A DNA stretch of 64,000 bases from Eubacteriales bacterium (GTDB lineage Bacteria; Bacillota; Clostridia; Oscillospirales; SIG627). Location: the NCBI GenBank assembly GCA_045660745.1, contig JAZREJ010000041.1, positions 12,656-76,655 on the forward strand, written 5' to 3'. Each line of letters begins with the position of its first letter. The stretch's first letter is position 1. Below, one piece after another: positions 34,089 through 63,500 of this stretch. Position numbers and translations under genes: made by a program. The notes beneath the pieces were generated by a model. It saw nothing but the letters and a program-made list of their open reading frames with translations, was not told the origin of the DNA and did not search any database.

Positions 34089-34155
34089 ATATAACCCCAT
34101 GTTCAAGAACTGATAATTACATACTGCAAAGTTTGATAGTTTTTTCATATATACG

Positions 34156-35198: not shown

Positions 35199-35314
35199 TA
35201 TTAATAGAAAGGTTGAACGGCGTGTTAATTCAGTTAAGCCACATCGTATTCGCCTCCTTTTTGAGATTTGATATGCAATAAAATAAAGTGTAAATTGAAT
35301 AAAGCTCATTCTCT

Positions 35315-41870: not shown

Positions 41871-41879
41871 GTCAACCTC

Positions 41880-43630: not shown

Positions 43631-43730
43631 AGTTTTAAATCTCCTTTGATATTTATTTTATTTTAGTATAAAATGAAAGGACGATATTGTAAACTCACAT
43701 AAAATAACTTAAAGGTGGACATTTAGTAAC

Positions 43731-43759
43731 TTGACAAGGGAAGATTTATGTGGTATTTT
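43731..43759 (+). promoter_or_regulatory. sigma-A promoter of the first AraC gene
   Basis: TTGACA 43731-43736, 17 nt, TATTTT 43754-43759. Confidence 0.5.
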
Positions 43760-43776
43760 ATGTGTGAGGTGATATT

Positions 43777-44535
43777 ATGTTTCCAAACAAAAAAACTCAA
43801 TATTATCGTTTAATTTCAGCCTTAGAGCTTGAATGGGAGCCTCGGTGCGAGCACGCACCCGAGCGTAATTTTCATGCTATTTCCTTTCGCATAAAAGGAA
43901 ACGCAGTTTTTGAGCATGGGAGCGAAAGTACCTCGGTAGGTGCGGGAGAAGTTGCATTTGTGCCCGCAGGATATTCCTACACACTTGACGAAAAGAGCAG
44001 AGCACATCTTTTCGTTATACATTTTGATACTGTTCCCGACAAGATATCGGGTCTTGAATCAATAAAAGTGGCAAATCCTCTTTGGTACGAGGAGCACTTC
44101 AGAATGCTACATCGTATATGGCAGAGAAAGGAAACGGGCTACCGCCTTGCGGCGACCTCGGTCTTTTACAGGATACTTGAGGAGCTGGAACGAGAGGGAG
44201 AGGAAAAAAAGCCTTGTACTAAAGATAGATTGTCGCGTGTTGTCGAGTATATACACGCAAACTATACTGACCCCACGCTTTCAATAACCAGACTTGCGGA
44301 AATGTACGGAGCAAGTTCCACGTATTTCAGAAGGATATTTAAGGAAAGTATGTCGTCTCTTCCGCTGCAGTACCTCAATAAGCTCAGGCTCAAGCGCGCA
44401 GAGGAGCTCTTGCGCTCGGGATATTATACAGTGGCGCAGGCGGCGGCTGAATCGGGATTTTCGGACGTTAAATACTTCTCAAGGTTTGTAAAAAAGATAA
44501 ACGGAGATGCCCCGTCGAGGCTGTGGAAGGTATAA
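43777..44535 (+). CDS. AraC family transcriptional regulator
   Basis: 252 aa. Cupin-like N-terminus and a C-terminal double HTH (..TLSITRLAEMYGASSTYFRRIFK..VAQAAAESGFSDVKYFSRFVKK). Confidence 0.85.
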   Translation: MFPNKKTQYYRLISALELEWEPRCEHAPERNFHAISFRIKGNAVFEHGSESTSVGAGEVAFVPAGYSYTLDEKSRAHLFVIHFDTVPDKISGLESIKVANPLWYEEHFRMLHRIWQRKETGYRLAATSVFYRILEELEREGEEKKPCTKDRLSRVVEYIHANYTDPTLSITRLAEMYGASSTYFRRIFKESMSSLPLQYLNKLRLKRAEELLRSGYYTVAQAAAESGFSDVKYFSRFVKKINGDAPSRLWKV

Positions 44536-46852: not shown

Positions 46853-47530
46853 ATGAAAATACGTTGGATAGGACAGGGAGGATATCTTCTGAGCGACAAC
46901 GACACTACGATTTGTATAGATCCATATATTTCGGATGCTGTCGAAAGGATCTCGGGCAAAAAGAGACTTGTAAAAGCACCGTTTCACCCGAGCGAGCTCA
47001 AAGCAAATGCCGTAATATGCACTCACGACCATCTTGATCACGTTGATACGGATGCCATACCTTTCATGAATGAGCTTTGCTTTTTCGCTCCCTCAAGCGC
47101 TGAAAAAACGATACGTTCGTGCGGTGTTACAGCTTATACTCAGTTTGACGTAGGGACAAGTGTAATGGTGGGAGAGTTTGAACTCACGGCGGTGTTTGCA
47201 GATCATACCGTTCCCGCAATAGGTGTTATCGTAAGACACAAGGACAGTACTCTTTTCTTTACGGGAGATACCTTCTACAATGAAAAGCTTATACATCAAG
47301 GTATTGATATTCTCTTTGTTTGCATCAACGGAAAGCTTGGTAATATGAACGTTTACGAGGCTATAAAGCTGGTAGGGGAAATCAACCCGAAGGTGGCGGT
47401 ACCCGCACACTACGGAATGTTTGCGGAAAACACAGAGGACCCCAAGAAATTTACGTCGGCTATTGAAAATGGTTTTGAAATGGAATATAATAAAGAATAC
47501 GAATGTGAGGAGTTGTTATGTTCGATTTGA
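46853..47530 (+). CDS. MBL-fold hydrolase (UlaG/lactonase-like)
   Basis: ORF track 46823..47530; start moved to ATG 46853 (MKIRWIGQGG). Motif THDHLDHVD. Confidence 0.75.
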   Translation: MKIRWIGQGGYLLSDNDTTICIDPYISDAVERISGKKRLVKAPFHPSELKANAVICTHDHLDHVDTDAIPFMNELCFFAPSSAEKTIRSCGVTAYTQFDVGTSVMVGEFELTAVFADHTVPAIGVIVRHKDSTLFFTGDTFYNEKLIHQGIDILFVCINGKLGNMNVYEAIKLVGEINPKVAVPAHYGMFAENTEDPKKFTSAIENGFEMEYNKEYECEELLCSI

Positions 47531-48249
47531 CAGGAAAAACGGCACTTGTAACCGGTGCGACTCAGGGAATCGGATTTGAAATCGCAAGGCTTCTTGCGTC
47601 ACATGGCGCAAAAGTGTTTGTGGCGGGCTCAAGAGACATTGAAAAATGCAAAAAGGCCTGTCTTGAAATTTCCGAAGCGCTCCCCGTTGTGGCAGACCTC
47701 ACCAGCCCCGACTGTGCCGAAAAATTATACGATATGACCGGAGACGTTGATATACTTGTACTCAACGCATCCATTCAGTACAAGCGTGAGTGGGACTGCT
47801 TTTCGGATGAGGAGTATGATGCGCAATGGAATTGCAACTTTAAAAGCTCCTACCTTCTCATAAAGAAGTACAGTGAGGGAATGAAGGAAAAGGGATTCGG
47901 AAGAATTGTGACTGTCGGAAGTGTAAATCAATACAGTCAACACAAGGAGCTTTCTATGTACGGAGTGACGAAGGCTGCACAGATGAAGCTTGTGCAAAAT
48001 CTTGCGCCACTACTCGCACCACACGGAATCACAGTAAACAATATTGCTCCCGGAGTTGTGGAAACTCCAAGAAACGACGACGTGCTCTCAGACGAGTGCT
48101 TAAAAGAAAAGATACAGGAGAAGATTCCCTGCGGGTTCATTGCGACTCCGAGGGATATCGCACCCGCAGTTTTACTTCTCGTTTCAAATGAAGGAAGATA
48201 TATCACAGGAAGCGACCTGATAATTGACGGAGGTATGCATCTAAAATGA
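47518..48249 (+). CDS. SDR family oxidoreductase
   Basis: 243 aa. Motifs TGATQGIG and YGVTKAA (YxxxK). Confidence 0.9.
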   Translation: MFDLTGKTALVTGATQGIGFEIARLLASHGAKVFVAGSRDIEKCKKACLEISEALPVVADLTSPDCAEKLYDMTGDVDILVLNASIQYKREWDCFSDEEYDAQWNCNFKSSYLLIKKYSEGMKEKGFGRIVTVGSVNQYSQHKELSMYGVTKAAQMKLVQNLAPLLAPHGITVNNIAPGVVETPRNDDVLSDECLKEKIQEKIPCGFIATPRDIAPAVLLLVSNEGRYITGSDLIIDGGMHLK

Positions 48250-49165: not shown

Positions 49166-49732
49166 ATGGATATTTACAAGCTTTTACAGGACAGAAGAAC
49201 AGTAAGAAAATTCAAAAACGAGCCTGTGGACAAATCGCTTCTCATAAAATTTGTCGACATGGCACGTATCGCACCGAGTGCTGCAAATCTTCAATCCATA
49301 AAATACGCCATAGTAACGGACGAGGTGACTCGGCGTGAAATATTTCCCTACATCAAGTATGCGGGCTACACTCCCGAATGGGTAAACACCTTTGACATAA
49401 CTCCGACCTCCTTCATCGTACTTCTCAATGACACAGAAGTGCGTCCTACTACAAAGGCGGAGGTGGATGCGGGAATCTCTCTCATGTCACTAACACTCAC
49501 AGCGGAGGCTGAAGGGCTTGCAAGCTGTATAATCGGCTCGGTCAATCGCGCAAAGGTCAAAGAAATACTTGCACTTTCCGAAAAGCTTGATATACTCTAT
49601 CTTATAGGAATAGGACATCCCGCGCAGACTAACAGGCTTTCGGATAGTGAAGAAAAGGTAAAATACAAGCTTGATGAGGATGGCAACTTTGCTGTTCCTA
49701 AAAGAACGCTTGACGAAATACTTGTGAGGTAA
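49166..49732 (+). CDS. nitroreductase family protein
   Basis: 188 aa. Segments RRTVRKFKNEPV...APSAANLQSIKY. Confidence 0.8.
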   Translation: MDIYKLLQDRRTVRKFKNEPVDKSLLIKFVDMARIAPSAANLQSIKYAIVTDEVTRREIFPYIKYAGYTPEWVNTFDITPTSFIVLLNDTEVRPTTKAEVDAGISLMSLTLTAEAEGLASCIIGSVNRAKVKEILALSEKLDILYLIGIGHPAQTNRLSDSEEKVKYKLDEDGNFAVPKRTLDEILVR

Positions 49733-49735: not shown

Positions 49736-51805
49736 ATGAATAAACAGGAAAAACTTACATTCTTAAAAAACAACCCCGTTTTCTGGTCAAGACTCGGATT
49801 CAGTTATGACCCGCCAAGACGTGGCAAGGACGGGAAACCGATAGTATTTACTCCCGATCTTACGGAGGACTCGAGCTTTCACCGTGACTTTACTGACATA
49901 GGCGTTAAGATTCACACAAACATCCTTCATCTCGGATGGATGGGCATTGACGACTATGATTATTCGGTAACAGATGCTGTGCTTGAAGAAATCTTTAAAA
50001 ATGACGACATTTACTACATTCCACGTATAAAGCTCAACGTACCCGTTGACTGGTGCCGTGAAAATCCGGAGGACGTATTTGTATACTGGGAGGGGCCAAG
50101 AGATGCGGAAGAGATTCGTGCGCTCGTTGACACACCTAAGCACGACTGGTTTGGATATACTGCCCCCAAGGGATATTACAAGGCGGGTGACTTCATTGAT
50201 GACCGCCCGAACGTGGGCGGCGTCATTTCACGCCAGAGCTTTTCCTCCGAGAAGTGGCTGAGTGATGCGGGAGAGGCGCTCAGACGCCTTGTTGACAGAC
50301 TTGAAAACGGCAAATACGCCGATAGAATAATCGGCTATCATATTGCCTTCGGCGTTTCCGGAGAAGCCATTCTTTGGGGACGTGCCGACTATCACTACGG
50401 TGACTACGGAATAAAGAATACAGAAAACTTTTATGCGTGGGCAGAAAAGAAATACGGCTCAAAGGAGGCGCTTCTCAAGGCTTGGGATGGGGATCTCACC
50501 CTTCCTTCTCCCGACGAGCGCTATTCAAGATTTGATAAGACTGAGGAATTTCTCCGAGGTGACAGAATCGGACGTGTCAGCCGTGATATGGATGAGTTTA
50601 CAAGTGCTTCCTGTGCAAATGCCATAGAGTATTTTTCAAGGGTAATAAAGAGCTTTGCCCCTGACAAGCTTATCGGTGCGTTCTATGGCTACTTCATGCA
50701 CACCGACAATCCCAACTACGCTGGACATCTTGAGCTTCAAAGACTTCTTGACGGAGATCTTGTTGACTTTTTTGCCGCTCCCAAGATATATCACAGATGC
50801 GGTCCCGGCGAGCCGGGCGGTGAGATGTGCCCCGTTCAGTCGGTAAACCTCAAAAAACTTTGGGTAGACGAGGCTGACAACCGTACACATCTTGCCAGCG
50901 ATGACGTTGCGGCATGGCTTTGCCGTGATATGAATGATACACGCTGGGTTATGTGGCGCGAGCTTTCAAAGAACATCGCCCACGATTCAGGCTTTTGGTG
51001 GATGGACCTTGGCGGACGCTGGTTCAAATCACGCGAGATACTGGATGAGGTCAAGCATATGCTTGATGTTTCCTCCTATCTGCGCACCTTGCCCCATAAG
51101 TCTCCCGCAGATGCTTTAATACTTGTTGACGAAAAGTGTATCTACTCCATGGGAATCTCAAAAAATCTTCGTGTAGGCTTTATGGAGGACTTCGTGTGCG
51201 AGACGAGAAAGTCGGGTGTGATTGCCGACGTTTACAGACTCTCCGACATACGCACAATTGACCTTTCAAAATACAAGCTTATCGTATTCGCCTACACGTT
51301 TGAAATTTCTCAAGAGGACAAGCTCTTCCTTGAAAGTCATATTTCAAATGACGCAACCATTTCCTATCACTGGGCGGCCGGTGCTATCAAGGACGGCAAG
51401 GTATCTCTTGAAAACGTGAAGGATTTCACAGGGTTTGACGTTATACAAGTCGAGCGTGACAAATACGATTTTCCCAAGCTTACTGTTGAAAATGCTGAAG
51501 CCTTTTCGGACAAGGGCTTTATAAAGGGCAACAGACTTATTTTCACAGAGCCTTTTATCACACACTCTGAAATAAGAAAAATGGGAGAGATTGCGGGATG
51601 TCGCATCGTTTGTGACAACGGGCTTATCCTTTACGGGGACAACCGAATCACGGGTGTATTTTCCAAGGAAAAGCTTACTGGTAAGGTAAAGCTTTCGGAC
51701 AAGGCTTGCTGGCGTGAGGAATTTTCGGGTAAGGTATTTACACAGACCGATGAAGTTGACCTTGAGCAGTTTGATGCAAATATTGCGGTATTTATACGCA
51801 AATAA
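49736..51805 (+). CDS. distant GH42-like glycoside hydrolase candidate with trimerisation-like C-terminal region
   Basis: 689 aa with no signal peptide. N-terminal TIM-like region and a central block ALILVDEKCIY...LSKYKLIVFAY resembling the GH42 middle domain. Confidence 0.5.
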   Translation: MNKQEKLTFLKNNPVFWSRLGFSYDPPRRGKDGKPIVFTPDLTEDSSFHRDFTDIGVKIHTNILHLGWMGIDDYDYSVTDAVLEEIFKNDDIYYIPRIKLNVPVDWCRENPEDVFVYWEGPRDAEEIRALVDTPKHDWFGYTAPKGYYKAGDFIDDRPNVGGVISRQSFSSEKWLSDAGEALRRLVDRLENGKYADRIIGYHIAFGVSGEAILWGRADYHYGDYGIKNTENFYAWAEKKYGSKEALLKAWDGDLTLPSPDERYSRFDKTEEFLRGDRIGRVSRDMDEFTSASCANAIEYFSRVIKSFAPDKLIGAFYGYFMHTDNPNYAGHLELQRLLDGDLVDFFAAPKIYHRCGPGEPGGEMCPVQSVNLKKLWVDEADNRTHLASDDVAAWLCRDMNDTRWVMWRELSKNIAHDSGFWWMDLGGRWFKSREILDEVKHMLDVSSYLRTLPHKSPADALILVDEKCIYSMGISKNLRVGFMEDFVCETRKSGVIADVYRLSDIRTIDLSKYKLIVFAYTFEISQEDKLFLESHISNDATISYHWAAGAIKDGKVSLENVKDFTGFDVIQVERDKYDFPKLTVENAEAFSDKGFIKGNRLIFTEPFITHSEIRKMGEIAGCRIVCDNGLILYGDNRITGVFSKEKLTGKVKLSDKACWREEFSGKVFTQTDEVDLEQFDANIAVFIRK

Positions 51806-51935: not shown

Positions 51936-53990
51936 ATGAAACTATTTACAGAATTCTATCCCTACGGCACACAGTATCACAGAGCGCCCACACCTCTCCC
52001 CGAGGAATGGGAGGGCGATATTAAGACTATTGCTGAAAAGGGGTATACACATATACAGTTCCGTCCTCAGTGGAGATGTCACGAGAGGGTACGCGGGAAA
52101 TACGTTTGGGATGATCTTGACAGGCTGTTCGAGCTTGCGGAAAAGTACAATATGAAGGTCGTTTTGAAGCCGATGCTTGAAAACGCTCCCGACTACGTGT
52201 ATACAAAGCTTGATGGAACGCGTATAAGCTTCCGCGGTCTGCCCATCGTTCCTCATGCCCCCGCGGCATACTACGTTGGCGGTTGGCTGCCTTGCTTTGA
52301 CAACCCCAAGGTAAGAAAGGCTGCCGCAAAATTTGTACGTGAGCTTACAAACAGATACAAGGACCATCCAAGCCTTTGGTTCTACAACGCGTGGAACGAG
52401 CCGAGAAGCCGTCCTATGGGACAGTGCTGCTGTAAGCATTCGGTGAAAAATTATCAGAATTGGTTGCGCGAGCGCTACGGCACGATAGAAAATCTCAACC
52501 GCACCTTTGGAAAGGAGTGGGAGAGCTTCAAGACTATCATTCCCCCTCACTCAAACGGATGCTACGTTGAAATGTTCTTATGGCGCCGGTGGGCGGCATA
52601 TGCACTTTCGGAGCACGTTGGTCTTGTTGCAGACGCGATACGCGAGGCTGACCCAAATGCCCGCGTAATGTGTCATGTCGGCGCATCCGCAGTTCATCAG
52701 GATCCTGTGTCCGATACGTCGGATGACTTCCTCAATTTCTCGAAGGTGGATTGGTACGGAACCTCTATGTGGATACCCTTCCGTCCCGAGACTCCCGCCG
52801 CATATAACGAGCTTTTCTATCAGGCAGCATGGCTCAGACGAGTTGACAAGAACTGGCAGTGCCATGAATTTTATCCGAATCAGGGTAACTGGTGGACTGA
52901 GGGCAAGCCATCGTTTGTGGAGCAGTCGATTCTTATGACGCTTGCGTCGGGTGCAAGAGGACTTACCTTCTGGCAGTACAGAAGCGAGCGCTTTGGTAAG
53001 GAATCAAACGGCTGGGGAATGAGAAATATCGACGGAAGTCCCACACCGAGAAGCGAGCGCTGTGACAGGGTTGCGGATTTTCTTAAAAACAACCCCGAAA
53101 TTGCACTTTCGGATTATAAAAAGCCTGAGGTTGCAGTATACTTCGATATTGAAAACGACCTTTTGATGAAGCTTCAGAAGATGGGCATCACAGGTGGCAA
53201 TCCCGAGGGCGGCAATCTAAACGAGACTTCCAACTACAAAACTGCATTCAAAGGCGCTCATACAACCCTGCGACGCATGGGACATACCGCTGATTACGTA
53301 GTAAACGGAGATGATCTCTCCTCCTATAAGTTAGTGACCGTAACTTCTCTTGAAATGACCGACGAATATGAAAGAGCCGCGTTTGAAGAGTATGTCAGAA
53401 ACGGTGGTATACTTTACATAGAGTACCCGTTTGCTTGCCGCGACGAAAAGACATGGGTATCTCCAACCCGTCCGAACCTCGGATTTGATGCCCTTACCGG
53501 CTGTCGCGAAGTACACAGAGTTGACTTTTCTTCATATGTTTCAAACGTTATAAAATTCAATGACGGACATGAGGAAACAGCAGCAGGCTGGCATATCACG
53601 CTCGAACCTGTTGCGGATGATGTAAAGGTGCTTGCTAATTGGAAGGATGGCGGTGTTGCTGTTGTTGAGAGACAGGTTGGGCGCGGTAAAGTTATCGTTT
53701 CTGCGGGTAGCTTCTCATCGTTTGCTCAGGAAAACTCCACCGAGATGATTCCCTCGCTTTACTACAAGCTCATGCTTTACGCAGGCCTTGAGATAAACGA
53801 AAGCCACGTATGGACTCTCTCAAGAGTATCGGATGAATTTGAATACCGCTTCTTCTTCAACACAAGTTATGATGATGCAACGGTTGAAAACTGCGGTGAG
53901 CTGATATTTGCTTCCGAGGAATGTACCGTTTCCGACAGCGGAACAGTTCTTCCTCACCAGACCTCCGCAATATACAGAATAAAGCTTTAA
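51936..53990 (+). CDS. GH42 family beta-galactosidase-like glycoside hydrolase
   Basis: ORF track 51885..53990; start moved to ATG 51936 behind GGAGG. Segments YPYGTQYHRAPTP, FYNAWNEPRS, LTFWQYRSERFGKESNGWG. Confidence 0.88.
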   Translation: MKLFTEFYPYGTQYHRAPTPLPEEWEGDIKTIAEKGYTHIQFRPQWRCHERVRGKYVWDDLDRLFELAEKYNMKVVLKPMLENAPDYVYTKLDGTRISFRGLPIVPHAPAAYYVGGWLPCFDNPKVRKAAAKFVRELTNRYKDHPSLWFYNAWNEPRSRPMGQCCCKHSVKNYQNWLRERYGTIENLNRTFGKEWESFKTIIPPHSNGCYVEMFLWRRWAAYALSEHVGLVADAIREADPNARVMCHVGASAVHQDPVSDTSDDFLNFSKVDWYGTSMWIPFRPETPAAYNELFYQAAWLRRVDKNWQCHEFYPNQGNWWTEGKPSFVEQSILMTLASGARGLTFWQYRSERFGKESNGWGMRNIDGSPTPRSERCDRVADFLKNNPEIALSDYKKPEVAVYFDIENDLLMKLQKMGITGGNPEGGNLNETSNYKTAFKGAHTTLRRMGHTADYVVNGDDLSSYKLVTVTSLEMTDEYERAAFEEYVRNGGILYIEYPFACRDEKTWVSPTRPNLGFDALTGCREVHRVDFSSYVSNVIKFNDGHEETAAGWHITLEPVADDVKVLANWKDGGVAVVERQVGRGKVIVSAGSFSSFAQENSTEMIPSLYYKLMLYAGLEINESHVWTLSRVSDEFEYRFFFNTSYDDATVENCGELIFASEECTVSDSGTVLPHQTSAIYRIKL

Positions 53991-53999: not shown

Positions 54000-56060
54000 A
54001 TGGAAAATATTTTTACAGATATATTCCCTTACGGTACTCAGTACCACAGAGCCCCTACTCCACTTCCCGAGGAATGGGAGGAAGACTTTCAAAACATAAA
54101 AAACAACGGATATACACACGTTCAGTTTCGTCCGCAGTGGAGATGGCATGAGAGGGTAAGAGGACAGTATACCTGGGATGACCTCGACCGTCTTTTCGAT
54201 CTTGCAGACGAATATGATATAAAGGTGGTTTTGAAGCCGATGCTTGAAAATGCCCCCGACTATGTCTATCATGAGCTTGGAGGTACTCGAATAGGCTTTA
54301 GAGGACACCCTATAGGTCCTATTTCACACGCAGCTTTTTATGTTGGCGGTTGGCTTCCTTGTTTTGATAATCCCGAGGTTGCAAAGGCTGCGGGAGATTT
54401 CGTCTTCGAGCTTGTATCAAGATATAAAAACCGTAAGAGTCTTTGGTTCTACAATGCATGGAATGAGCCGAGAAGCCGCCCCCTCGGACAGTGCACTTGT
54501 CCTCATTCAGTAAAGAAATACCGAGAATTTTTGAAAAACCGATTCGGTACTGTTGAAAACCTCAACCGTATTTACGGAAAGGCTTGGGAAAGCTTTGAGA
54601 CGATCACACCTCCTCTGTCAAGCTCTGATTACGTTGAACTGTTTTTGTGGAGAAGATGGGCGGCACAAGCGGTAGCAGAGCATATTTCCATTGCATCCGA
54701 AGCAATAAGACGTGCTGACCCGAATGCCAAGGTAATGTGTCACGTCGGTGCATCGTCTGTACGTCAGGACCCGGCTTGCGACACCTCCGACGATTTCCAA
54801 AACAAAGAAACCGTTGATTGGTACGGCACCTCCATGTGGATTCCAATGAACCCTGAGAATCCGCTTGAATATGACAGCACTCTTATTCAATCGTCCTGGC
54901 TCCACAGGGTAGATAAAAACTGGATGTGCCACGAATTCTACCCGAATCAGGGTAACTGGTGGCCCGAGGCAAAGCCCGAATATATCGAGCAAGCAGCTCT
55001 TATGGCGATATCCGTCGGATGCCGCGGACTTACCTTCTGGCAGTACAGAAGTGAGCGCTTTGGAGAAGAGTCAAACGGATGGGGAATGAGAAATATCAAC
55101 GGAAGTGCAACTCCGAGAAGCGAGCGCTTTGACCGACTCGGAAGAATACTTTCGACCGAGAAGGATCTTGCAAAAACTGATTACGTCGCACCTCCCGTCG
55201 CGCTCTACTTTGATATGGAAAACGATCTTCAGATGAGATTGCAAACTATAAACTCACCCACGGGTGAGGAGCTTGGACGCGTGCAACCCTCATACTCTCA
55301 CGCAACAAAGACCTCTGTAAACGGTGCTCACGCAACCCTCAGACGTCTTGGATATACGGCGGATTTCGTCGTAAAGGGGGATGACCTATCTCGCTATAAG
55401 GCGGTCGTTGTGTCCTCACTTGAAATGACAACAAACGTGGAGCGTGAAGCGTTTGAAAACTACGTTAAAAACGGTGGTGTTCTCTACATAGAATATCCCT
55501 TCGCTTGCCGTGATGAGAGAACTTGGGTATCTCCCAATCGTCCGAATTCGGGCTTTGAAGCACTCACCGGATGCCTTGAAGCGCACAGAGTTGAGTTCTC
55601 AAAGAGAATGACAAACAAGATGATATTCGAGGACGGCAGAATTGAAGAGACTGCGGGATGGCACGTAACTCTTGAGCCTATTGCAGACGACGTAAAGATT
55701 CTTGCACGCTGGGAGGAAGGTGGCGTTGCCGCGATCGAGCGTAAGGTAGGAAATGGAAAGGTCATTGTTTCTGGTGGAAACTTTTCAATATGGTCACACG
55801 ATCACTCGACAGAGGCTATTCCCTCACTCTTCGCAAAATCACTTGAGGATGCGGGTATCCGTGTCGACACCTCTCCTCTTTGGGTAATCGAGCGTGAATC
55901 GGATGAATATCTCTTCCGATTTGTGTTCAACACAGGAGACGAAAGTGTCGTGTGTGACAAGCTTGGTGAGATAGCATTCTCAGCAATTGAAATCACCGAA
56001 GGAAACGGAAAGATCACACTTCCTCCTCAAACGAGCGTAGTGTTTAAGATCAAAAAATGA
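54000..56060 (+). CDS. GH42 family beta-galactosidase-like glycoside hydrolase (tandem paralog)
   Basis: 686 aa, collinear with the preceding gene along its whole length (same YGTQYHRAPTPLPEEWE, FYNAWNEPRSRP and WQYRSERFG blocks). Confidence 0.88.
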   Translation: MENIFTDIFPYGTQYHRAPTPLPEEWEEDFQNIKNNGYTHVQFRPQWRWHERVRGQYTWDDLDRLFDLADEYDIKVVLKPMLENAPDYVYHELGGTRIGFRGHPIGPISHAAFYVGGWLPCFDNPEVAKAAGDFVFELVSRYKNRKSLWFYNAWNEPRSRPLGQCTCPHSVKKYREFLKNRFGTVENLNRIYGKAWESFETITPPLSSSDYVELFLWRRWAAQAVAEHISIASEAIRRADPNAKVMCHVGASSVRQDPACDTSDDFQNKETVDWYGTSMWIPMNPENPLEYDSTLIQSSWLHRVDKNWMCHEFYPNQGNWWPEAKPEYIEQAALMAISVGCRGLTFWQYRSERFGEESNGWGMRNINGSATPRSERFDRLGRILSTEKDLAKTDYVAPPVALYFDMENDLQMRLQTINSPTGEELGRVQPSYSHATKTSVNGAHATLRRLGYTADFVVKGDDLSRYKAVVVSSLEMTTNVEREAFENYVKNGGVLYIEYPFACRDERTWVSPNRPNSGFEALTGCLEAHRVEFSKRMTNKMIFEDGRIEETAGWHVTLEPIADDVKILARWEEGGVAAIERKVGNGKVIVSGGNFSIWSHDHSTEAIPSLFAKSLEDAGIRVDTSPLWVIERESDEYLFRFVFNTGDESVVCDKLGEIAFSAIEITEGNGKITLPPQTSVVFKIKK

Positions 56061-56161
56061 AAAAGTCGCCTTCGTAAAGTTCGCCTGCACTCACTAATCT
56101 CAGGGTAGACTTTTGCGTTACACGTAAATTGCGATGCAATTTCCTTAGTAATAAAAATACA

Positions 56162-56203
56162 AACCCCGAAACGCACTTGTTTTGAGTGCTTTTCGGGGTT
56201 TTG
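56162..56203. terminator. hairpin terminator between convergent GH42 and glpP genes
   Basis: AACCCCGAAA..GCACT / AGTGC..TTTCGGGGTT followed by TTTG on plus; T-rich on minus as well. Confidence 0.7.
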
Positions 56204-56215
56204 TTAAGATGTACA

Positions 56216-56249
56216 GAAAAAACACACGACATTTGTGTCGTGTGTTTTG
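56216..56249 (-). terminator. rho-independent terminator of glpP
   Basis: ACACACGACA (56222-56231) / TGTCGTGTGT (56236-56245). Plus A6 at 56216-56221 gives a U-run on the minus strand. Confidence 0.75.
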
Positions 56250-56251
56250 CT

Positions 56252-56782
56252 TTATCTCCAAAGCTCTCTTTTACCTGTTGAAACAGCAAACGCACCTGAA
56301 ACGTGCGCAAGAGCTACTTCCTCCTCAGTCTCAATAAGACCGCCTGCAATAATGGGAATAGTCACTCTGTCGCGGAAGAAGGAGATTGCCTTCGTTGCAA
56401 TTCCGGGCATAAGCTCAATCATATCAGGAAGATTCTTCTGCATGGTATCGACGGCAGTAGCAATTGAGTGGGAATCAACGATAAATACTCTTTGAACAGT
56501 TTTCATACCGAGATCCCTTGCCGACTTTATGATACTTGCGCGGGTACTTATTATACCATCAACACCGAGTGTCTTAAGATATAAACATCCTGACGTATCC
56601 TTGCCTATACCATCGGCAAAATCCATATGTACAAAAAGTCTCTTTCCCGCAGTGTGTACCTTTTCAAGAACACTCTGAAGCTCCATTATATCGGTCTTTA
56701 AAAGAAATATATCCGAAACGCTTGACAAAAGCGCTTCTTCTAAATCCCGCTGGTTTCTTACCGCTGCAATTATCTTTCCCAT
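56252..56782 (-). CDS. glpP: GlpP-family RNA-binding antiterminator
   Basis: ORF track 56252..56851; start moved to ATG 56782 behind GGAGGG. Strong resemblance to Bacillus subtilis GlpP as recalled from memory (DGIISTR, IPIIAGGLIETEEEV, STGKRELW). Confidence 0.85.
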   Translation of the reverse strand: MGKIIAAVRNQRDLEEALLSSVSDIFLLKTDIMELQSVLEKVHTAGKRLFVHMDFADGIGKDTSGCLYLKTLGVDGIISTRASIIKSARDLGMKTVQRVFIVDSHSIATAVDTMQKNLPDMIELMPGIATKAISFFRDRVTIPIIAGGLIETEEEVALAHVSGAFAVSTGKRELWR

Positions 56783-56794
56783 AAAACCCTCCAA

Positions 56795-56847
56795 AGAAAA
56801 AATAAGCGCACTACTGCTGCAGCATTTTGCCACAGCAGTATGTGCAC
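56795..56847 (-). terminator. leader terminator upstream of glpP (leader 2)
   Basis: Minus strand GTGCACATACTGCTG (56847-56833) / CAGCAGTAGTGCGC (56819-56806), loop containing GGCAAAATG, then TTATTTTTT. Confidence 0.7.
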
Positions 56848-56878
56848 TCAAAATCTCAGCAATTACTACAGTAACTTG

Positions 56879-56907
56879 ATTATAGCACCGAGTGAGATTT
56901 TTGTCAA
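56879..56907 (-). promoter_or_regulatory. consensus sigma-A promoter for glpP
   Basis: Minus strand TTGACA (56907-56902), 17 nt, TATAAT (56884-56879). Begins 8 nt after the malic enzyme stop. Confidence 0.75.
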
Positions 56908-56914
56908 GAATAAT

Positions 56915-58087
56915 TTATATTCTTGCAACGCCCGTCTCACGTGCGGTCTTGATAACCGCTTCTGCAACGACCTCAGCAACTCTCTTATCAAGAGCTGAAG
57001 CGATAATGTTTTCCTCAGAAAGCTCTTCGTCGCTGATAAGGGATGCGAGAGCAAAAGAGGTTGCAACCTTCATTTCCTCGTTGATGCAGGTAGCTCTGCA
57101 ATCAAGCGCACCGCGGAAGATACCGGGGAAAGCAAGTACGTTGTTTATCTGGTTGGGAAAGTCGGAGCGTCCTGTGCCGACAACTCTTGCACCTGCCTTC
57201 TTTGCTATGTCCGGCATGATTTCGGGAGTGGGGTTTGCCATGGGGAACATGATAGCATCATTCGCCATAGACTTTACCATATCCTCGTTTACGAGGTTTG
57301 GAGCGGAAACACCGATAAATACGTCAGCGCCAACGAGAGCATCAGCAAGAGTTCCTTTCTTGTGCTCAAGGTTTGTAACCTTAGAGATTTCTTCCTGTGC
57401 AACGTTGTTATTTTCGTCACCCTCGCAGATGATGCCGAAACGGTCGCAGAAGGTAAGATTTTTAACGCCGATGTTGAGGAGGTGACGTCCGATAGCGATA
57501 CCTGCACTTCCAGCGCCGTTGATAACTACTTTAACCTCACCGATCTCCTTCTTAACAACCTTAAGCGCGTTGATAAGAGCTGCCGCAACAACGATAGCTG
57601 TTCCGTGCTGGTCATCGTGGAAAATCGGGATATCACAGATTTCTTTAAGCTTTCTCTCAATCTCAAAGGAACGGGGAGCGGAAATATCCTCGAGGTTGAT
57701 ACCGCCGAAGCTTCCGGAGAGAAGATAAATCGTTCTTACAATTTCGTCAACGTCCTTGGACTTGATGCAAAGGGGGAATGCATCAACGTCTGCAAATTCC
57801 TTGAAGAGTGCACATTTACCCTCCATAACGGGCATACCTGCCTCAGGTCCGATATCACCGAGACCGAGGATTGCAGTACCATCGGTTATAACCGCAACGA
57901 GATTTGAACGACGGGTAAGGTCATAGGACTTGTTTATATCCTTGTTGATTTCAAGGCAAGGCTCTGCAACACCGGGGGTATATGCAAGAGAGAGATCCTG
58001 ACGGTCATTGATGGGGGCACGGGAGATAACTTCTATCTTACCCTTCCATTCGTAATGCTTTTTGAGTGATTCTTGTCTGATATCCAT
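56915..58087 (-). CDS. NAD(P)-dependent malic enzyme
   Basis: 390 aa. Segments AYTPGVAEPC, IPIFHDDQHGTAIV, INGAGSAGIAI. Confidence 0.92.
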   Translation of the reverse strand: MDIRQESLKKHYEWKGKIEVISRAPINDRQDLSLAYTPGVAEPCLEINKDINKSYDLTRRSNLVAVITDGTAILGLGDIGPEAGMPVMEGKCALFKEFADVDAFPLCIKSKDVDEIVRTIYLLSGSFGGINLEDISAPRSFEIERKLKEICDIPIFHDDQHGTAIVVAAALINALKVVKKEIGEVKVVINGAGSAGIAIGRHLLNIGVKNLTFCDRFGIICEGDENNNVAQEEISKVTNLEHKKGTLADALVGADVFIGVSAPNLVNEDMVKSMANDAIMFPMANPTPEIMPDIAKKAGARVVGTGRSDFPNQINNVLAFPGIFRGALDCRATCINEEMKVATSFALASLISDEELSEENIIASALDKRVAEVVAEAVIKTARETGVARI

Positions 58088-58090
58088 TTT

Positions 58091-59200
58091 TTAGTCCTCC
58101 CAAGGGAATTTATATTGTGTAAGACCAAGTGTGTTACGAACCTCTTCCATTTCCTTCTGAACAGATTCGTTGATCGGCACGCCCGACTCGCGTGCAAGGC
58201 GAACTTCATGTTCCTTCTCACCCGCAGTGTAGATACGCTCTGCATCGGGAGCTTTTCTGGAAGCACGAACTTCACGAAGAATATCGCCCGCCTTTTTACG
58301 GCAAACATCCTCACCGAGGAAGTGATCGGTATCGATTGCGATAAAGAAGTGCCCGAGGCAGTAGGGAACCTTGTTTCCATTTTCGTCCTTACCTGTAAGA
58401 GCCTTACCATAGCTGCCGTCCTGAAGAACTGCAGACATAAGCTCTACGAACATAGCAAAGCCGTAGCCCTTGTATCCGCATCCTTCTTCACCGGGACCGC
58501 CGAGAGTACAAAGTGCAGCCTCTCCGCGTGCCATAGCCTTAAGAGCATCCGCTGAAGTTCCCTCATAGGCTTCGCCCTCAAGATTTACCAGCGCGCCCTT
58601 GGGAGCGTCCTTGCCGATACGCGCATAATACTCGAGCTTGCCATTTTGGTAGGTGGAGCTTGCGGCATCAAAGTTAAAATCAAACGCCTCGTCGGTGGGG
58701 ACGCCGAGAGTTAATGGGTTGGTACCGAACATACCCTCAACACCGAAGGTGGGGGCAACTGTTGGACGTGCGTTTGTACCTGTCATACCTACACAACCCG
58801 CTTTAGCTGCCATGGAAGTGTAATAGCCGGCGATACCATAGTGGCAGGAGTTACGAACAACTACCATACCCATACCATATTCTTTAGCTTTTGCAATAGC
58901 CATCGACATCGCCTTGTGACCGATGACCTGACCCATACCATGATGTCCGTCAACAACGGCAGTGGTGGGGGTTTCCTTGATGATTTCAAAGTTTGTAATT
59001 GGGTTCTGGATACCGTCTCTGATTCTGTCGAGATAAACTGGCTTGAAGCGGTTAACACCGTGAGATTCGATACCTCTCTTATCGGATTCGAGAAGAACGT
59101 CAGCACATATCTCTGCATCCTCTCTGGGAATTCCGTAACCTACGAAAGCGTCGATAACGAAATTCGTGATTGTTTTCCAATCGACAATGTTGCTTTTCAT
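58091..59200 (-). CDS. Ldh2 (malate/L-lactate dehydrogenase type 2) family oxidoreductase
   Basis: 369 aa. Segments ESHGVNRF, DGHHGMGQV, GYKGYGFAMFVELMS; RBS GGAGG. Confidence 0.82.
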   Translation of the reverse strand: MKSNIVDWKTITNFVIDAFVGYGIPREDAEICADVLLESDKRGIESHGVNRFKPVYLDRIRDGIQNPITNFEIIKETPTTAVVDGHHGMGQVIGHKAMSMAIAKAKEYGMGMVVVRNSCHYGIAGYYTSMAAKAGCVGMTGTNARPTVAPTFGVEGMFGTNPLTLGVPTDEAFDFNFDAASSTYQNGKLEYYARIGKDAPKGALVNLEGEAYEGTSADALKAMARGEAALCTLGGPGEEGCGYKGYGFAMFVELMSAVLQDGSYGKALTGKDENGNKVPYCLGHFFIAIDTDHFLGEDVCRKKAGDILREVRASRKAPDAERIYTAGEKEHEVRLARESGVPINESVQKEMEEVRNTLGLTQYKFPWED

Positions 59201-59226
59201 CTTTTTTCCTCCAAAATATTAATTCC

Positions 59227-59275
59227 AACAAAAAAGCGCACTTATCCCATCGTATTTGCCGATAAATAAGTGCAC
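59227..59275 (-). terminator. leader terminator upstream of the Ldh2-family gene (leader 1)
   Basis: Minus strand GTGCACTTAT (59275-59266) / ATAAGTGCGC (59245-59236), inner ATCG/CGAT stem, loop containing GGCAAATA, then TTTTTTGTT. Confidence 0.7.
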
Positions 59276-59297
59276 TCTAAAATCTCAATGCGTAGAT

Positions 59298-59326
59298 ATT
59301 ATAATAGATTTTTTGAATATTGTCAA
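59298..59326 (-). promoter_or_regulatory. consensus sigma-A promoter for the Ldh2/malic enzyme operon
   Basis: Minus strand TTGACA (59326-59321), 17 nt, TATAAT (59303-59298). Confidence 0.75.
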
Positions 59327-59756
59327 GCATAATTCTGCAAACAGCATGATTATTCTTCCACACTCACTATTTTACGGATTCACACCCCTTGCCAAACAGA
59401 TCAAGTGTAAGCGACGTACCGCTAAACTTTTTTCACAATCTAACTCCTTTTAGTCTATAAAATAGTATAAAAACCGCCAGAAATCTGCTTTTCAGAGCTT
59501 TGCTTGTTGCAAAATCTATTGTCTCTCGTAACAGCAAGCCTCTCACAGATACAGCATTGAGCTTTTATCAGTGGAAACATTTTACGTTTATTTTATCACA
59601 ATTAATAATTTTTTTAATCCTATATCGGTAAATATCTTGTTCCTCATAATATTACGTGCTCATTATTCACCCGATTTTACAAGCGGACATCATATCGGAG
59701 CAAGTCAAACAGACACGGGATATTCCGATCTCTTGTTTTTTTGAAGAGAGCCTTTT

Positions 59757-60953
59757 CTACCGTTTTGATCTTAGTTTTACGTTCTTATAGAGAAAAAACA
59801 GTCCGAAGGTCAGAGTTATCGGAAATACTGTGGCAGTAAGTAAGCCTATTTTCAGGTCTCCGCCCGCCATTTCCGAGAATTTGCCCACCATAGCAGGGCT
59901 TACGGTTGCCCCCAAGTCTCCAGCCAAAGCCAAAAAGGCAAACATAGCAGTTCCGCCTCGCGGACATTTTTGAGAGGAAATACTGATCGTTCCGGGCCAC
60001 ATGATTCCGACGGCAAGACCGCAAAGAGCGCAACCTACCAAGCCTAATATCGGCAAAGGAGACAGCGACGCAATCAAATAACATGCTGTACAGGAAGCTC
60101 CGCATAAAAGCATGGTTTTTGTAAGGTTGAGATTTTGGCTCATTTTTCCGTATGACATACGGGCAACACCCATGAATGCCGCAAATAAACAAGCGCCCGC
60201 CAGATCTCCTACAGTTTTGGATACTCCGAGTGCCGATTCGGTAAATGCAGATGTCCACTGGGACATGGTGGCTTCCGAAGCACCGGCACATATCATCAGA
60301 ATTATCATCAGCCAAAAGACAGGAACTCCGAATAACTGCTTTATACTCATGCTATTTCCGTCCTCAACCAGTCTTTCTATAGGACAGCGCATAAAATTAA
60401 ATGCGTTATACAGCGGAACCAAAGCCCAGATAAAGGTAAGTATTTTCCAGCTTTCTATACCGAATATTGTGAAAAATGCTGTTGACCCCAATATCACTCC
60501 TACCGCACCCCAGCAGTAAAATGAGTGCAACAGACTCATCATGCCGTCTTTGTTTTCAAAAGGACACGCCTCAACGATTGGACTTACAAGTACCTCGATA
60601 AGACCGCTGCCTATTGCGTAAAAAATTACGGCAATAAGCAGTCCGACAAACGGTGCTGACATTATATCCGGCAAAATCGCCATTAAAACAAGTCCCACCG
60701 ATGACAACAGCTGTGATGCAACCACACAGATCCGATAACCTATTCTGTCGGCATATTTTGTGGCTGCCAGATCCGTGAGTAATTGTGTAAAATAAAATAC
60801 CAAAGGAATAAGAGCTATTTTTTCAAGCGAAATTCCGTAGGTTCCTTTAAAGGTCAAGAACAATAGCGGCGAAAAGTTCGCCGATATTGATTGTGTTACA
60901 AATCCGAGATAACAGGCCACCAATGTTTTTTTGTAATTCTTTTGCTTTACCAT
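59757..60953 (-). CDS. MFS transporter
   Basis: 398 aa with about 12 TM segments. Confidence 0.85.
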   Translation of the reverse strand: MVKQKNYKKTLVACYLGFVTQSISANFSPLLFLTFKGTYGISLEKIALIPLVFYFTQLLTDLAATKYADRIGYRICVVASQLLSSVGLVLMAILPDIMSAPFVGLLIAVIFYAIGSGLIEVLVSPIVEACPFENKDGMMSLLHSFYCWGAVGVILGSTAFFTIFGIESWKILTFIWALVPLYNAFNFMRCPIERLVEDGNSMSIKQLFGVPVFWLMIILMICAGASEATMSQWTSAFTESALGVSKTVGDLAGACLFAAFMGVARMSYGKMSQNLNLTKTMLLCGASCTACYLIASLSPLPILGLVGCALCGLAVGIMWPGTISISSQKCPRGGTAMFAFLALAGDLGATVSPAMVGKFSEMAGGDLKIGLLTATVFPITLTFGLFFLYKNVKLRSKR

Positions 60954-61345
60954 AATTGCTCACTTCCTAAAAGCTGAATTCACAGTCCCTATGTTCTCAG
61001 AGTACATCCCAGAAGCCTTAAACCAATTTAAATTTTCCATCGTCAACAAAGTATTTACATCGTAGAGCTCCTTGGCAGCACAGCCTAAAACAGTTTATCA
61101 TATAGCAACCGAAAAATCAATATAAATAAGCTTTTTTAAGTATTAAAAATCCAAGATCCGCGCTTTCTCGCTACACTGATATTATATCCCACGTCAAATG
61201 TACGGCAAAACAATTTTTGATAAAAGCGCATCATATAGCTTTATAACGATTTTATAAATTATAAGAGCTGTATATTGAAAAAAACAGCATTCAATAAGAT
61301 AAAAGAACTCATCAAATTCTTACTTGTCGAACAGTTAAATAGAGA

Positions 61346-61409: not shown

Positions 61410-61997
61410 TTATTTGAAATATCTCTTAAGAAGACCTTCAAGACCTCTGCCGTGTCTTGCTTCATCTCTTGCCATTTCATGAACGGTGTCATGGATAGCG
61501 TCAAGGCCGTTCTTCTTAGCGCAAGAAGCGAGGTCAAATTTGCCCTGGGTTGCGCCGTATTCACAGTCAACTCTCCACTTAAGGTTGTCCTTGGTGGTAG
61601 CTTTCATATTGGGCTCAAGGTCCTCACCAAGAAGCTCAGCAAACTTTGCTGCATGCTCTGCTTCTTCGTATGCTGCCTTTTCCCAGTAAAGTCCTACTTC
61701 GGGATAGCCCTCTCTGTGAGCGATGCGTGCCATGCAGAGGTACATACCAACCTCGGCACACTCTCCATTGAAGTTAGCCATGAGCTGTTCGAATATGTAC
61801 TTCTTATCTTCTTCACTGATGTCGGGGTTATTCTTAACGGTCTTTGCATAAACACCATACTCGTGCTGTGCTGCGAGAGCTGCGCCCTCTTCCATTACCT
61901 TAAATTTGTCTGCGGGAACCTTACATACAGGGCACTTTTCGGGAGCTGCATCGCCCTCGTGAACGTAACCGCATACTGAACATACATACTTTGCCAT
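61410..61997 (-). CDS. rbr: reverse rubrerythrin (N-terminal rubredoxin-like domain plus di-iron four-helix domain)
   Basis: ORF track 61410..62012; start moved to ATG 61997 behind GGAGG. Segments [31 protein letters not shown]. Confidence 0.9.
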
Positions 61998-62031
61998 AAT
62001 AAAATCCTCCAAAAATTATATAAATTATTTT

Positions 62032-62412
62032 TTATTTGGTACAATCCTTACACGTTCCGTAAAAGAACATTCTGTGGTAATCAATTTTTGCACCTGTCTT
62101 TTTTTCAGCCTCTACGTCGATTGCATCAAGCGGCATCTCAACATCAAGTATACGATTGCACTCGTTACATACGAAGTGACTGTGCTCATGGGTGAACGCA
62201 TCGTAGTGCTCGGTTCCGCTTCCGGTTTCAAGCCTTAATATTAGTCCTTTGTCGGAAAGCTGTTTTAAATTTCTGTAAACTGTTCCAAGACTTACGTTCG
62301 GGAACCCCTTCCTCATATTAAAGTAAACCCAATCTGCATCGGGGTGTTCTTTGGTAGACTTTAATAATTCGATTATAGCATCGCGTTTATCGGAATGCTT
62401 TTCCTGAGCCAT
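62032..62412 (-). CDS. perR: Fur family peroxide-responsive repressor (PerR-like)
   Basis: 126 aa. Segments HPDADWVY..SLGTVYRNL, HSHFVCNECNR and CKDC (two CxxC pairs). Lies directly upstream of rubrerythrin. Confidence 0.8.
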   Translation of the reverse strand: MAQEKHSDKRDAIIELLKSTKEHPDADWVYFNMRKGFPNVSLGTVYRNLKQLSDKGLILRLETGSGTEHYDAFTHEHSHFVCNECNRILDVEMPLDAIDVEAEKKTGAKIDYHRMFFYGTCKDCTK

Positions 62413-62681: not shown

Positions 62682-63500
62682 TTATCTTACTTTTTCGCCT
62701 TTTTTGTTGATGAAGAACTCGTTGTCCCCAAGATAGACCCGTGCTGTACCGGTTTCATCGGAAAAATCGCGCGCCATATCGTATTTCGGCTCTATTACAA
62801 ATTCGCCTTCTTTGTTTATATATCCGTACGTTCCGTTTATCTCAACGCACGCAAGCCCATTTTTGGCAAAGTCACCCGCATCGTCGAAATTGAGCGATAT
62901 CACCGTCTCACCATGTTCGTTGATGTAGCCGTACTTGTCACCAAGCTTGACCCATGCAAGCCCGTTTTCTGCAAAGTCAGACCCTTCGTCAAATTGCGGA
63001 GCGATTGCAAGCTCACCAATTTCATTTACATATCCGATTTTCTCGTCTAGTTTTACAAGTGCAAGTCCGTTTTTTGCAAAATCTTGAGCATATTCAAATT
63101 GAATGTCAATGATGATTTCGCCTTTTTCGTTGATAAAGCCGTCTTTTTCACCTATCCAAACCCTTGCGAGTCCGTTTTCGGCAAACTCTGCTCCACCGTC
63201 AAACTGTGGATATATTACGAATTCGCCTTTTTCGTTGATGTACCCGCAGTTAAGAGGAGCATCCCATTCGCCAACGTGCACTGCGGCAAGCCCATTCTCA
63301 GCAAAGTCATAAGCCATTATGAATTGCGGCTCGATTACTGTTTTACCATCTGCATTTTTGTAACCCCACATACCATTTTTACTGTATGGAATAAGGGATC
63401 GTTCTTCCGTGTGGGTGCTTTCTCTGTTATTGCAGGATATAAGCGAAAAAACGGCAATAACCGATAGCACAAAAATTAAAAATCTGATTGTCTTTTTCAT
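62682..63500 (-). CDS. WG-repeat (KWG-type) lipoprotein
   Basis: 272 aa; lipobox LISC. About 6.5 tandem repeats of roughly 35 aa, G[YF]INxxGExVIxPQFDxAxDFAxNGLAxV. Confidence 0.85.
   Translation of the reverse strand: MKKTIRFLIFVLSVIAVFSLISCNNRESTHTEERSLIPYSKNGMWGYKNADGKTVIEPQFIMAYDFAENGLAAVHVGEWDAPLNCGYINEKGEFVIYPQFDGGAEFAENGLARVWIGEKDGFINEKGEIIIDIQFEYAQDFAKNGLALVKLDEKIGYVNEIGELAIAPQFDEGSDFAENGLAWVKLGDKYGYINEHGETVISLNFDDAGDFAKNGLACVEINGTYGYINKEGEFVIEPKYDMARDFSDETGTARVYLGDNEFFINKKGEKVR

Follow-up and report, generated by a model that had tools for sequence, protein, structure and literature searches.

To our knowledge, GlpP is among the least understood of the RNA-binding antiterminators, the only regulon characterised for it being that of the glp genes of Bacillus subtilis, and its RNA site is poorly defined. 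In the HutP/hut and TRAP/trp systems of Bacillus, the leader contains short NAG repeats, near or overlapping the terminator or antiterminator, to which a protein binds when activated by its ligand. Foreign promoters come under the control of GlpP and glycerol when joined to the 5′ untranslated region (5′UTR) of B. subtilis glpD (PMC9604022). The malate shunt, as outlined for Clostridium thermocellum and its relatives, leads from phosphoenolpyruvate (PEP) through oxaloacetate and malate to pyruvate, and transfers reducing power from NADH to NADPH (PMC8100219, PMC7282089). The locus considered here lies at positions 56252-59326 of a 64-kb stretch of DNA from an Eubacteriales bacterium of the Clostridia, from gut or rumen (contig JAZREJ010000041.1; the whole stretch is called the window), and contains three head-to-tail genes on the minus strand, encoding an Ldh_2 dehydrogenase (Ldh2), a malic enzyme (ME) and GlpP. 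We think it likely that a GlpP antitermination circuit dependent on glycerol-3-phosphate (G3P) acts at this locus on a malate-shunt pair of enzymes, and that glpP is under positive autoregulation. A first-pass annotation of the window had already read the locus as a GlpP circuit attached to an Ldh2/malic enzyme operon instead of glycerol genes, and this reading is supported by the class to which the leaders belong and by synteny.

Profile searches agreed with the first-pass annotation on the identity of the three genes. Ldh2 (58091-59200) encodes an NAD(P)-dependent 2-hydroxyacid dehydrogenase of the Ldh_2 family (PF02615, E = 2.7e-111, 372 bits vs. a cut-off of 38.8), ME (56915-58087) a short NAD(P)-dependent malic enzyme of 390 aa (PF00390 and PF03949), and glpP (56252-56782) a 176-aa homologue of the G3P-responsive antiterminator (PF04309). 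The ATG of ME is found 3 nt past the stop codon of Ldh2, a gap which indicates that both genes are co-transcribed. Promoter P1 of the Ldh2-ME operon (59298-59326) and promoter P2 of glpP (56879-56907, with an extended TG), both on the minus strand, match the consensus TTGACA-17 nt-TATAAT in 12 out of 12 positions, and were the only two such sites within the 5.4 kb scanned (55800-61200). The ME stop codon is followed 8 nt later by the −35 box of P2, and the gap contains no terminator.

Each promoter is followed by a bipartite motif, the presumed GlpP RNA site, which reads TGAGAT-TTTA-GAGTGCA in leader 1 (TGAGATTTTAGAGTGCA, 59271-59287, minus strand) and, by pattern search, TGAGAT-TTT-GAGTGCA in leader 2 (TGAGATTTTGAGTGCA, 56843-56858, minus strand). 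The pattern TGAGAT-N2-6-GAGTGCA had three matches in the window and none in 100 shuffles. An intrinsic terminator occurs in both leaders, at 59230-59278 in leader 1 (hairpin 59278-59233 plus U-tract; −22.4 kcal/mol, z −5.2) and at 56795-56850 in leader 2 (hairpin 56850-56803 plus U-tract; −36.8 kcal/mol, z −5.5), again on the minus strand, and none of 200 shuffles folded as stably as either of them. The 5′ arm of both terminators starts inside the bipartite motif, within GAGTGCA in the case of leader 1. The earlier claim of two copies of a promoter, leader and terminator module, one before Ldh2 and one before glpP, is thus borne out by the perfect promoters, the motif and the z values near −5, and the 3′ ends predicted at about 59230 and 56797 coincide with the computed ends of the U-tracts, near 59230 and 56795. 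The glpP start was set at the ATG at 56782, located after a GGAGGG and downstream of the terminator; a 176-aa protein 100% identical to the window GlpP counted from this codon is present in NCBI (P0001). The start listed mechanically, a TTG at 56851, lies inside the leader and was discarded in favour of this ATG.

The leaders of the window were compared with those of other genomes, the comparison loci being labelled L001-L038. L001 and L002 belong to JAFYTG01 and JAFSID01 and L025 to GCA_052836825.1, and the sister genomes include GCA_054298775.1, GCA_054276095.1, and GCA_052832345.1. The B. subtilis glpD 5′UTR (...CCTGAGATGAGGAGAGACCACAGC...GCTGTTGTGGTCTCTTTTTC, or alternatively excerpted ...GGTCCTGAGATGAGGAGAGACCACAGC...GCTGTTGTGGTCTCTTTTTC; PMC9604022, Table S4) displays the layout CTGAGAT-GAG-GAGAGACC, in which 3 nt separate CTGAGAT from the GAG at which the 5′ arm of the terminator starts, and the window leaders are built alike. 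The same layout was found upstream of glpF and glpD beside glpP in Macrococcus (L014; GAGACAAGAGACCC and GAGATAAGAGACTT) and, in 13 Clostridia loci, before operons for a DAO-type FAD oxidoreductase, Pyr_redox_2 and DUF1667 beside glpP (the loci named being L003-L006, L008, L011-L013, L027-L029, and L036). The best NCBIfam match of the DAO-type protein is type-2 glycerol-3-phosphate oxidase, and close homologues are called G3P dehydrogenase by JGI. In every leader compared, the first paired base of the terminator fell within or just before the second GAG. Among 14 close leaders that were aligned, GAGTG in the 5′ arm was invariant and the following CA was kept in 13, changes in the 3′ arm were confined to G-U wobble, and covariation was seen in the upper stem, six pairs presenting compensatory changes. 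The invariant 5′ arm together with a 3′ arm that varies by wobble alone agrees with a double constraint on the 5′ arm, from base pairing and from a protein. The leader 1 motif and an equivalent promoter are kept before Ldh2 in L002, L021, and L023. Leader 2 shares TTGCTGAGA(T/A)T..GAGTGCA with the sister DAO-operon leaders of L003, L027, L028, L029, and L036, and the sister DAO leader TTGCTGAGAATTAGAGTGCA with its terminator nearly equals the leader of the window glpP, TTGCTGAGATTTTGAGTGCA. These similarities place the window leaders in one class with the B. subtilis glpD 5′UTR and the canonical G3P-oxidoreductase leaders.

A covariance model made from these leaders (R1) matched leader 1 with 69.5 bits and leader 2 with 73.8 bits, and found the leaders it came from but no further copies in the window plus 24 loci (361 kb). 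A more distant leader subtype was matched with an E-value of only about 0.7, which indicates that a single covariance model does not span the whole leader family. When the region 55000-61000 was searched against Rfam 15 at a permissive E-value, only two chance-level matches appeared (E 2.4 and 9.8); the GlpP leader is not a curated Rfam family. A metagenome-wide scan for GAGATTT-N0-2-GAGTGCA-N20-50-TGCRYTTWTT gave five matches, all of them unrelated and within coding sequence. The motif is short, it is absent from Rfam and its binding by GlpP is deduced from sequence, and one might accordingly suppose that the leaders operate independently of GlpP, either as ordinary attenuators or pause sites or through another factor that reads the motif, glpP being a mere neighbour. 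We regard this as rather improbable, since in the loci examined the motif and terminator stand beside glpP or before canonical glp genes from Bacillales to Clostridia, the layout matches that of the B. subtilis glpD 5′UTR, no other copies were detected by the covariance model in the 361 kb, and the motif is missing from close Ldh2-ME pairs that have no adjacent glpP (described below).

With regard to the enzymes, the best relatives of Ldh2 with a solved structure were 3i0p (E 6e-87) and 1v9n (E 7e-81), deposited as 'malate dehydrogenase', entry names of Ldh_2 relatives in the PDB being the depositors' own; the sulfolactate dehydrogenase 2x06 was more distant. Ldh2 remained under the NCBIfam equivalog cut-offs for sulfolactate dehydrogenase (237 vs. 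500), ureidoglycolate dehydrogenase AllD (161 vs. 356), and 2,3-diketogulonate reductase (141 vs. 316), and was therefore not assigned to any of these three substrate subfamilies. Judging from its relatives, the protein is probably a type-2 malate dehydrogenase (MDH). The best solved relative of ME was 5cee, an 'NAD-dependent malic enzyme' (E 4.6e-138), and the identity of malolactic enzyme was rejected for 56915-58087, the corresponding model giving 68 bits vs. a cut-off of 850. Ldh2 and ME would probably constitute a malate-shunt pair of MDH plus malic enzyme. More than 100 Ldh2 clusters are 85-95% identical, Ldh2 being far more conserved than GlpP, and among the homologous loci examined ME was always directly 3′ of Ldh2. 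The enzymes had been ascribed earlier to C4-dicarboxylate or 2-hydroxy/2-oxo-acid metabolism; the two genes resemble a widely conserved malate-shunt pair more than a peripheral catabolic operon.

The origin of this arrangement could be traced through the GlpP proteins. Wherever the context was readable, GlpPs at least 76% identical to that of the window were encoded in Ldh2-ME-GlpP modules (L001, L002, L021/22, and L023-26), the modules being kept together with their leaders while the flanks differ among loci, and GlpPs with 68-72% identity (L003, L027, L028, L029, and L036) were encoded by the last gene of leader-DAO-Pyr_redox_2-DUF1667-glpP operons. The genes in front of both types of unit correspond: YunB-PGA_cap-WYL-279aa precedes Ldh2-ME-GlpP in L023/L025 and YunB-PGA_cap-WYL-285aa precedes DAO-PyrRedox-DUF1667-GlpP in L028/L029, and a cation-efflux gene precedes the Ldh2 module in L021 and the DAO operon in L027/L036. 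In the window itself, the genes for a 689-aa protein, an AraC regulator and 343aa-SIS-PfkB-SIS (40.3-51.8 kb) match the flanks of glpP in L028 and L003, with 58-98% identity. In a neighbour-joining tree, the Ldh2-linked GlpPs formed one clade nested among the DAO-linked ones, with L033 branching separately. The synteny and the nesting in the GlpP tree indicate that Ldh2-ME replaced the three G3P-oxidoreductase genes in place, glpP gaining a promoter-leader of its own. The ancestor would have been a leader-DAO (G3P oxidoreductase)-Pyr_redox_2-DUF1667-glpP operon, and the leader is present twice in the Ldh2-ME clade. The wiring also varies within the clade. In L023 (7862-8003; likewise in L024-L026) a second leader-terminator without promoter follows the ME stop codon, and glpP is driven by a separate, leaderless consensus promoter; this element appears to be a conditional end of the Ldh2-ME transcript and not an autoregulatory leader, and such a variant suggests that the leader parts are modular.

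No match to glpF, glpK, glpD or the DAO/Pyr_redox/DUF1667 genes was obtained in the 64-kb window by tblastn with Macrococcus GlpF/K/D and clostridial queries, and no glpF, glpK, glpD or glpA-like gene was recognised by Pfam in 38 of the larger window open reading frames (ORFs), the large ORFs 10587-22790, 47518-48249, 49166-49732, and 62682-63500 being covered by tblastn only. The first-pass annotation had noted the absence of glpF, glpK, and glpD from the window; both methods agree with it, and glpA-like genes are likewise absent. Only eight DAO clusters were found at an identity of 65% or more, of which at least six trace to glpP-linked loci and the two from the shortest contigs were unplaced. 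This hints that the Ldh2 clade may lack a DAO-type G3P oxidoreductase.

Close relatives of the Ldh2-ME pair were found under other control as well, adding up to at least four regulatory set-ups for the same pair in related Clostridia. In L033 (Ldh2 90% identical) a GlpP-type leader of another subtype (GAGATTTGGAGACG; GAGATTTGGAGACGTATC...) is followed by Ldh2, ME, GlpP, two HAD phosphatases and a Na/Pi transporter. Within this unit (6906-13584), the gene of a HAD-IIA phosphatase overlaps the glpP stop codon and precedes those of a Cof-type HAD phosphatase and a PhoU-domain Na/Pi symporter, and the GlpP is 51% identical to that of the window and takes a different position in the tree. The HAD phosphatases hint at a phosphatase function towards a phosphate ester, perhaps G3P, in this Ldh2-ME-GlpP unit. 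By these gene orders and tree positions, a GlpP-type leader has been joined to Ldh2-ME at least twice, and two or more independent joinings argue for a real physiological connection over an accident. The remaining pairs have no leader: in L030 (5006-9307; Ldh2 87% identical) Ldh2-ME stands behind a glycosidase gene without promoter, in L034 (5860-10092; 94%) it is co-transcribed with a HAD-IIA phosphatase gene and flanked by a divergent DeoR-family regulator, and in L038 (7830-10289; 94%) it is under a plain promoter.

As Ldh2-ME occupies the exact place of the DAO genes, and judging by family names Ldh_2 enzymes have diverse substrates, it is conceivable that Ldh2 acts on a glycerol-derived compound and functionally replaces the lost G3P oxidoreductase, the operon still serving a glycerol pathway. 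This appears to us very improbable, given that an Ldh2-ME pair 87-94% identical exists without GlpP under other regulation, that Ldh2 is always in an operon with malic enzyme, and that its nearest relatives of solved structure were deposited as malate dehydrogenases. Besides, the Ldh_2 substrates known to us are 2-hydroxy or 2-oxo acids and not polyol phosphates.

The GlpP of the window scored 195.2 bits against PF04309 (cut-off of 27), its residues 4-175 covering positions 1-173 of the 173 of the profile, and it was matched end to end by 3kts (E 3.2e-32) and 1vkf (E 5.6e-22), solved structures of the GlpP family, both of which we take to be TIM-barrel-like. In an alignment of 114 GlpP homologues, conservation reached 90% or more at 56 positions, of which 55 are unchanged in the Ldh2-linked clade. 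The lone change (F99V) is common to the DAO-linked sisters, and among the motifs kept are H52/D54, STR79-81, QR97-98, and GG147-148; the loop of the last of them presumably corresponds to the loop that usually binds phosphate in TIM barrels. Only T30 (vs. S) and A82 (vs. T) separate the Ldh2-linked from the DAO-linked GlpPs, and both positions vary across the family.

These data bear on the possibility that the circuit is the same but the effector of GlpP has changed to a hydroxy or oxo acid such as malate or oxaloacetate, which would make the locus a self-contained, substrate-induced catabolic unit. Such a change would suit enzymes that do not act on G3P and a window without any glp gene. The search also gave no close DAO homologue other than those linked to sister-clade GlpPs, so that G3P catabolism may be absent. 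However, the retention of 55 of the 56 positions and the 68-72% identity to regulators of G3P-oxidoreductase operons make a new ligand unlikely; the only two distinguishing residues fall at family-variable positions, the GG147-148 loop is kept, and the distant GlpP of L033 is also wired to Ldh2-ME. In L033, moreover, the two HAD phosphatases and the Na/Pi transporter after glpP point to a phosphorylated signal. On balance, a changed effector is regarded as unlikely, and the suggestion of the first-pass annotation that the effector might differ, the weakest point in its reading, is disfavoured.

In the proposed circuit with G3P as effector, both transcripts would start at strong sigma-70 promoters and stop by default about 60-75 nt later at the intrinsic terminator. 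GlpP loaded with its effector, most likely still sn-glycerol-3-phosphate, would recognise the tandem GAGA(U)...GAG(U) element of the growing transcript; as the second half-element provides the first bases of the terminator 5′ arm, bound GlpP would block closure of the hairpin and RNA polymerase would read on. Through leader 1, the circuit would control the Ldh2-ME route from oxaloacetate via malate to pyruvate, by which reducing power passes from NADH to NADPH, and through leader 2 it would control glpP itself, a positive feedback. The glpP autoregulation predicted earlier is supported by this second leader copy directly before the gene. Given that no terminator separates ME from P2, read-through from the Ldh2-ME unit would also feed glpP. 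Seen in the sequences are the genes, the promoters, the arrangement of motif and terminator, its agreement with characterised and canonical GlpP leaders, the synteny and the retained GlpP residues; that GlpP binds, that it responds to G3P, what the enzymes act on and why the cell should wire them in this way are what we infer.

Two non-exclusive ideas may explain why G3P should act on the malate node. According to the first one, glycerol is more reduced than sugar, and a C4 branch or shunt would balance NADH. According to the second, the internal pool of G3P, formed from dihydroxyacetone phosphate (DHAP) and NADH, would gauge a backed-up or over-reduced glycolysis and call for flux through the malate node. 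An observation in favour of the second idea comes from Pseudoclostridium thermosuccinogenes, which uses the malate shunt and highly over-expresses the GlpP-adjacent DAO/DUF1667 genes under CO2 limitation (PMC7282089). In the passages on this experiment, the DAO/FAD-oxidoreductase/DUF1667 genes are placed between the gene of a G3P-responsive antiterminator and that of glycerol kinase, the CO2-limited fermentations are glucose-fed with no mention of glycerol addition, and the authors assign no function to the DAO/DUF1667 cluster (PMC7282089). Low CO2 strains PEP carboxykinase (PEPCK) and the malate shunt, so that the over-expression fits the idea of an internal G3P gauge. It suggests that GlpP regulons in this group may respond to the internal metabolic state, and links the regulon to redox and C4-node stress.

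Carried further, this leads to a more speculative proposal, to which we attach only a tentative, minority degree of belief: that the G3P oxidoreductase was lost, that GlpP has ceased to report glycerol from outside and reads the internal G3P pool (DHAP × NADH/NAD+), that it induces the malate shunt (an MDH consuming NADH plus a malic enzyme forming NADPH) together with itself, and that this arrangement arose at least twice. If true, a catabolic antiterminator would have become a regulator that adjusts redox and flux in central metabolism by feed-forward control, and the HAD phosphatases encoded after glpP in L033 could dephosphorylate G3P.

The third match to the bipartite pattern, an exact copy (TGAGAT-TAGT-GAGTGCA, 56086-56102, minus strand, from the pattern search), is of uncertain membership in the circuit. 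It lies 3′ of glpP, past two terminator hairpins and 26-42 nt after the stop codon of a convergent GH42 gene. Its role as a cryptic leader was rejected: neither a promoter nor a stable fold (z +0.5) goes with it, and it is not conserved, being absent at the equivalent position after glpP in L001, L002, L021, and L023. It may be what is left of an earlier leader, or an isolated GlpP site. The glpP transcript is closed by a hairpin terminator at 56219-56248 with a 13-bp stem, which is probably bidirectional since both of its sides are T/A-rich. No cre (CcpA) sites were found around P1 or P2.

Several points weigh against the reading of the locus as a G3P-dependent circuit on the malate shunt. 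The malate/oxaloacetate substrate of the Ldh_2 enzyme is taken from the names given to solved relatives, and the GlpP RNA site from conservation and not from an annotated B. subtilis binding site. The scheme does not explain the terminator-less third motif at 56086-56102, whose standing is uncertain. Canonical glp genes with the same leader may be present elsewhere in the genome, in which case the regulon would have been expanded rather than its content replaced. Finally, the close pairs of L030, L034, and L038 (Ldh2 87-94% identical) lack a GlpP leader, which makes the link between GlpP and Ldh2-ME lineage-specific, and it could be nearly neutral.

Among the neighbouring genes, the upstream MFS transporter gene (59757-60953) was not considered part of the module, from which it is separated by about 430 nt and P1, and it does not adjoin the module in L021, L023, and L002. 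On the other side, two tandem paralogues of GH42 beta-galactosidase (51936-53990 and 54000-56060, plus strand) run convergent with glpP; the listed TTG start of the first one, at 51885, is probably too far upstream. In L001 and L021 the pair adjoins the module, in L023 it does not. Further away are the gene of the 689-aa protein (49736-51805), syntenic with the flanks of glpP in L028 and L003, and a 343aa-SIS_2-PfkB-SIS_2 cluster with a divergent AraC regulator (40292-44535), whose 343-aa protein is 98% identical to that of L028; neither the 343-aa nor the 689-aa protein had a Pfam match. On the minus strand, a gene for a Fur-family regulator (62032-62412) stands directly upstream of one for a rubrerythrin with an N-terminal rubredoxin-like domain (61410-62012), which by their domains look like a PerR-type oxidative-stress pair. 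Also on the minus strand, four consecutive ORFs (545, 204, 195, and 415 aa; 31892-36562) without Pfam match at E 1e-5 are located downstream of genes for an ECF-type sigma factor (37610-38149) and a DUF4367 protein (36967-37626).

The mechanism proposed for the locus is already known; its regulon is new, and the evolutionary path is unusually clear. Searches of the full-text literature retrieved no paper in which malic enzyme or malate dehydrogenase is connected with GlpP or the 'glycerol-3-phosphate responsive antiterminator', in line with the statement of the first-pass annotation that no characterised example was known, and no antiterminator control of the malate shunt was found. The comparison across genomes offers a definition of the GlpP RNA element, a tandem GAGA(U)-N3-5-GAG overlapping a terminator arm, from Bacillales to Clostridia. 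The locus is also a natural experiment in which the regulated enzymes appear to have been exchanged while the regulator stayed in place, the sister genomes serving as controls. It provides a testable link from the G3P pool to the oxaloacetate-malate-pyruvate node in Clostridia that are abundant in rumen and gut and whose fermentation products are shaped by redox balancing through the malate shunt. The promoter-leader modules, of about 130 bp, could be usable for inducible expression in anaerobic Firmicutes, as is the glpD 5′UTR in B. subtilis.

Compared with the known systems, the regulator belongs to the same PF04309 family as the GlpP of B. subtilis, which acts on the leader terminators of glpD, glpFK, and glpTQ. 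As in B. subtilis glpD, a sigma-A promoter is followed by a 5′UTR terminator with CUGAGAU-N3/4-GAG overlapping its 5′ arm (PMC9604022), the second half-site being GAGUGCA here vs. GAGAGACC in glpD. The genes downstream are Ldh_2 and malic enzyme instead of those for glycerol uptake and catabolism; the identity of the downstream gene is thus the one defining feature of GlpP leaders in which the locus departs, and it concerns the content of the regulon and not the mechanism. The window glpP carries its own leader, whereas that of B. subtilis is listed as a separate operon (PMC10573289). With the malate shunt of C. thermocellum (PEPCK-MDH-malic enzyme) the locus shares MDH plus malic enzyme at the PEP-pyruvate-oxaloacetate node, although the MDH candidate here belongs to the Ldh_2 (type 2) family. 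Like HutP and TRAP, GlpP would use short NAG-type sites, but its fold is unrelated and only two half-sites are visible here. The clostridial leader-DAO-Pyr_redox_2-DUF1667-glpP operons share with the locus an orthologous glpP, a near-identical leader and the same chromosomal neighbourhood, and differ from it in that their glpP occupies the last-gene position, whereas in the window it has a promoter and a leader of its own.

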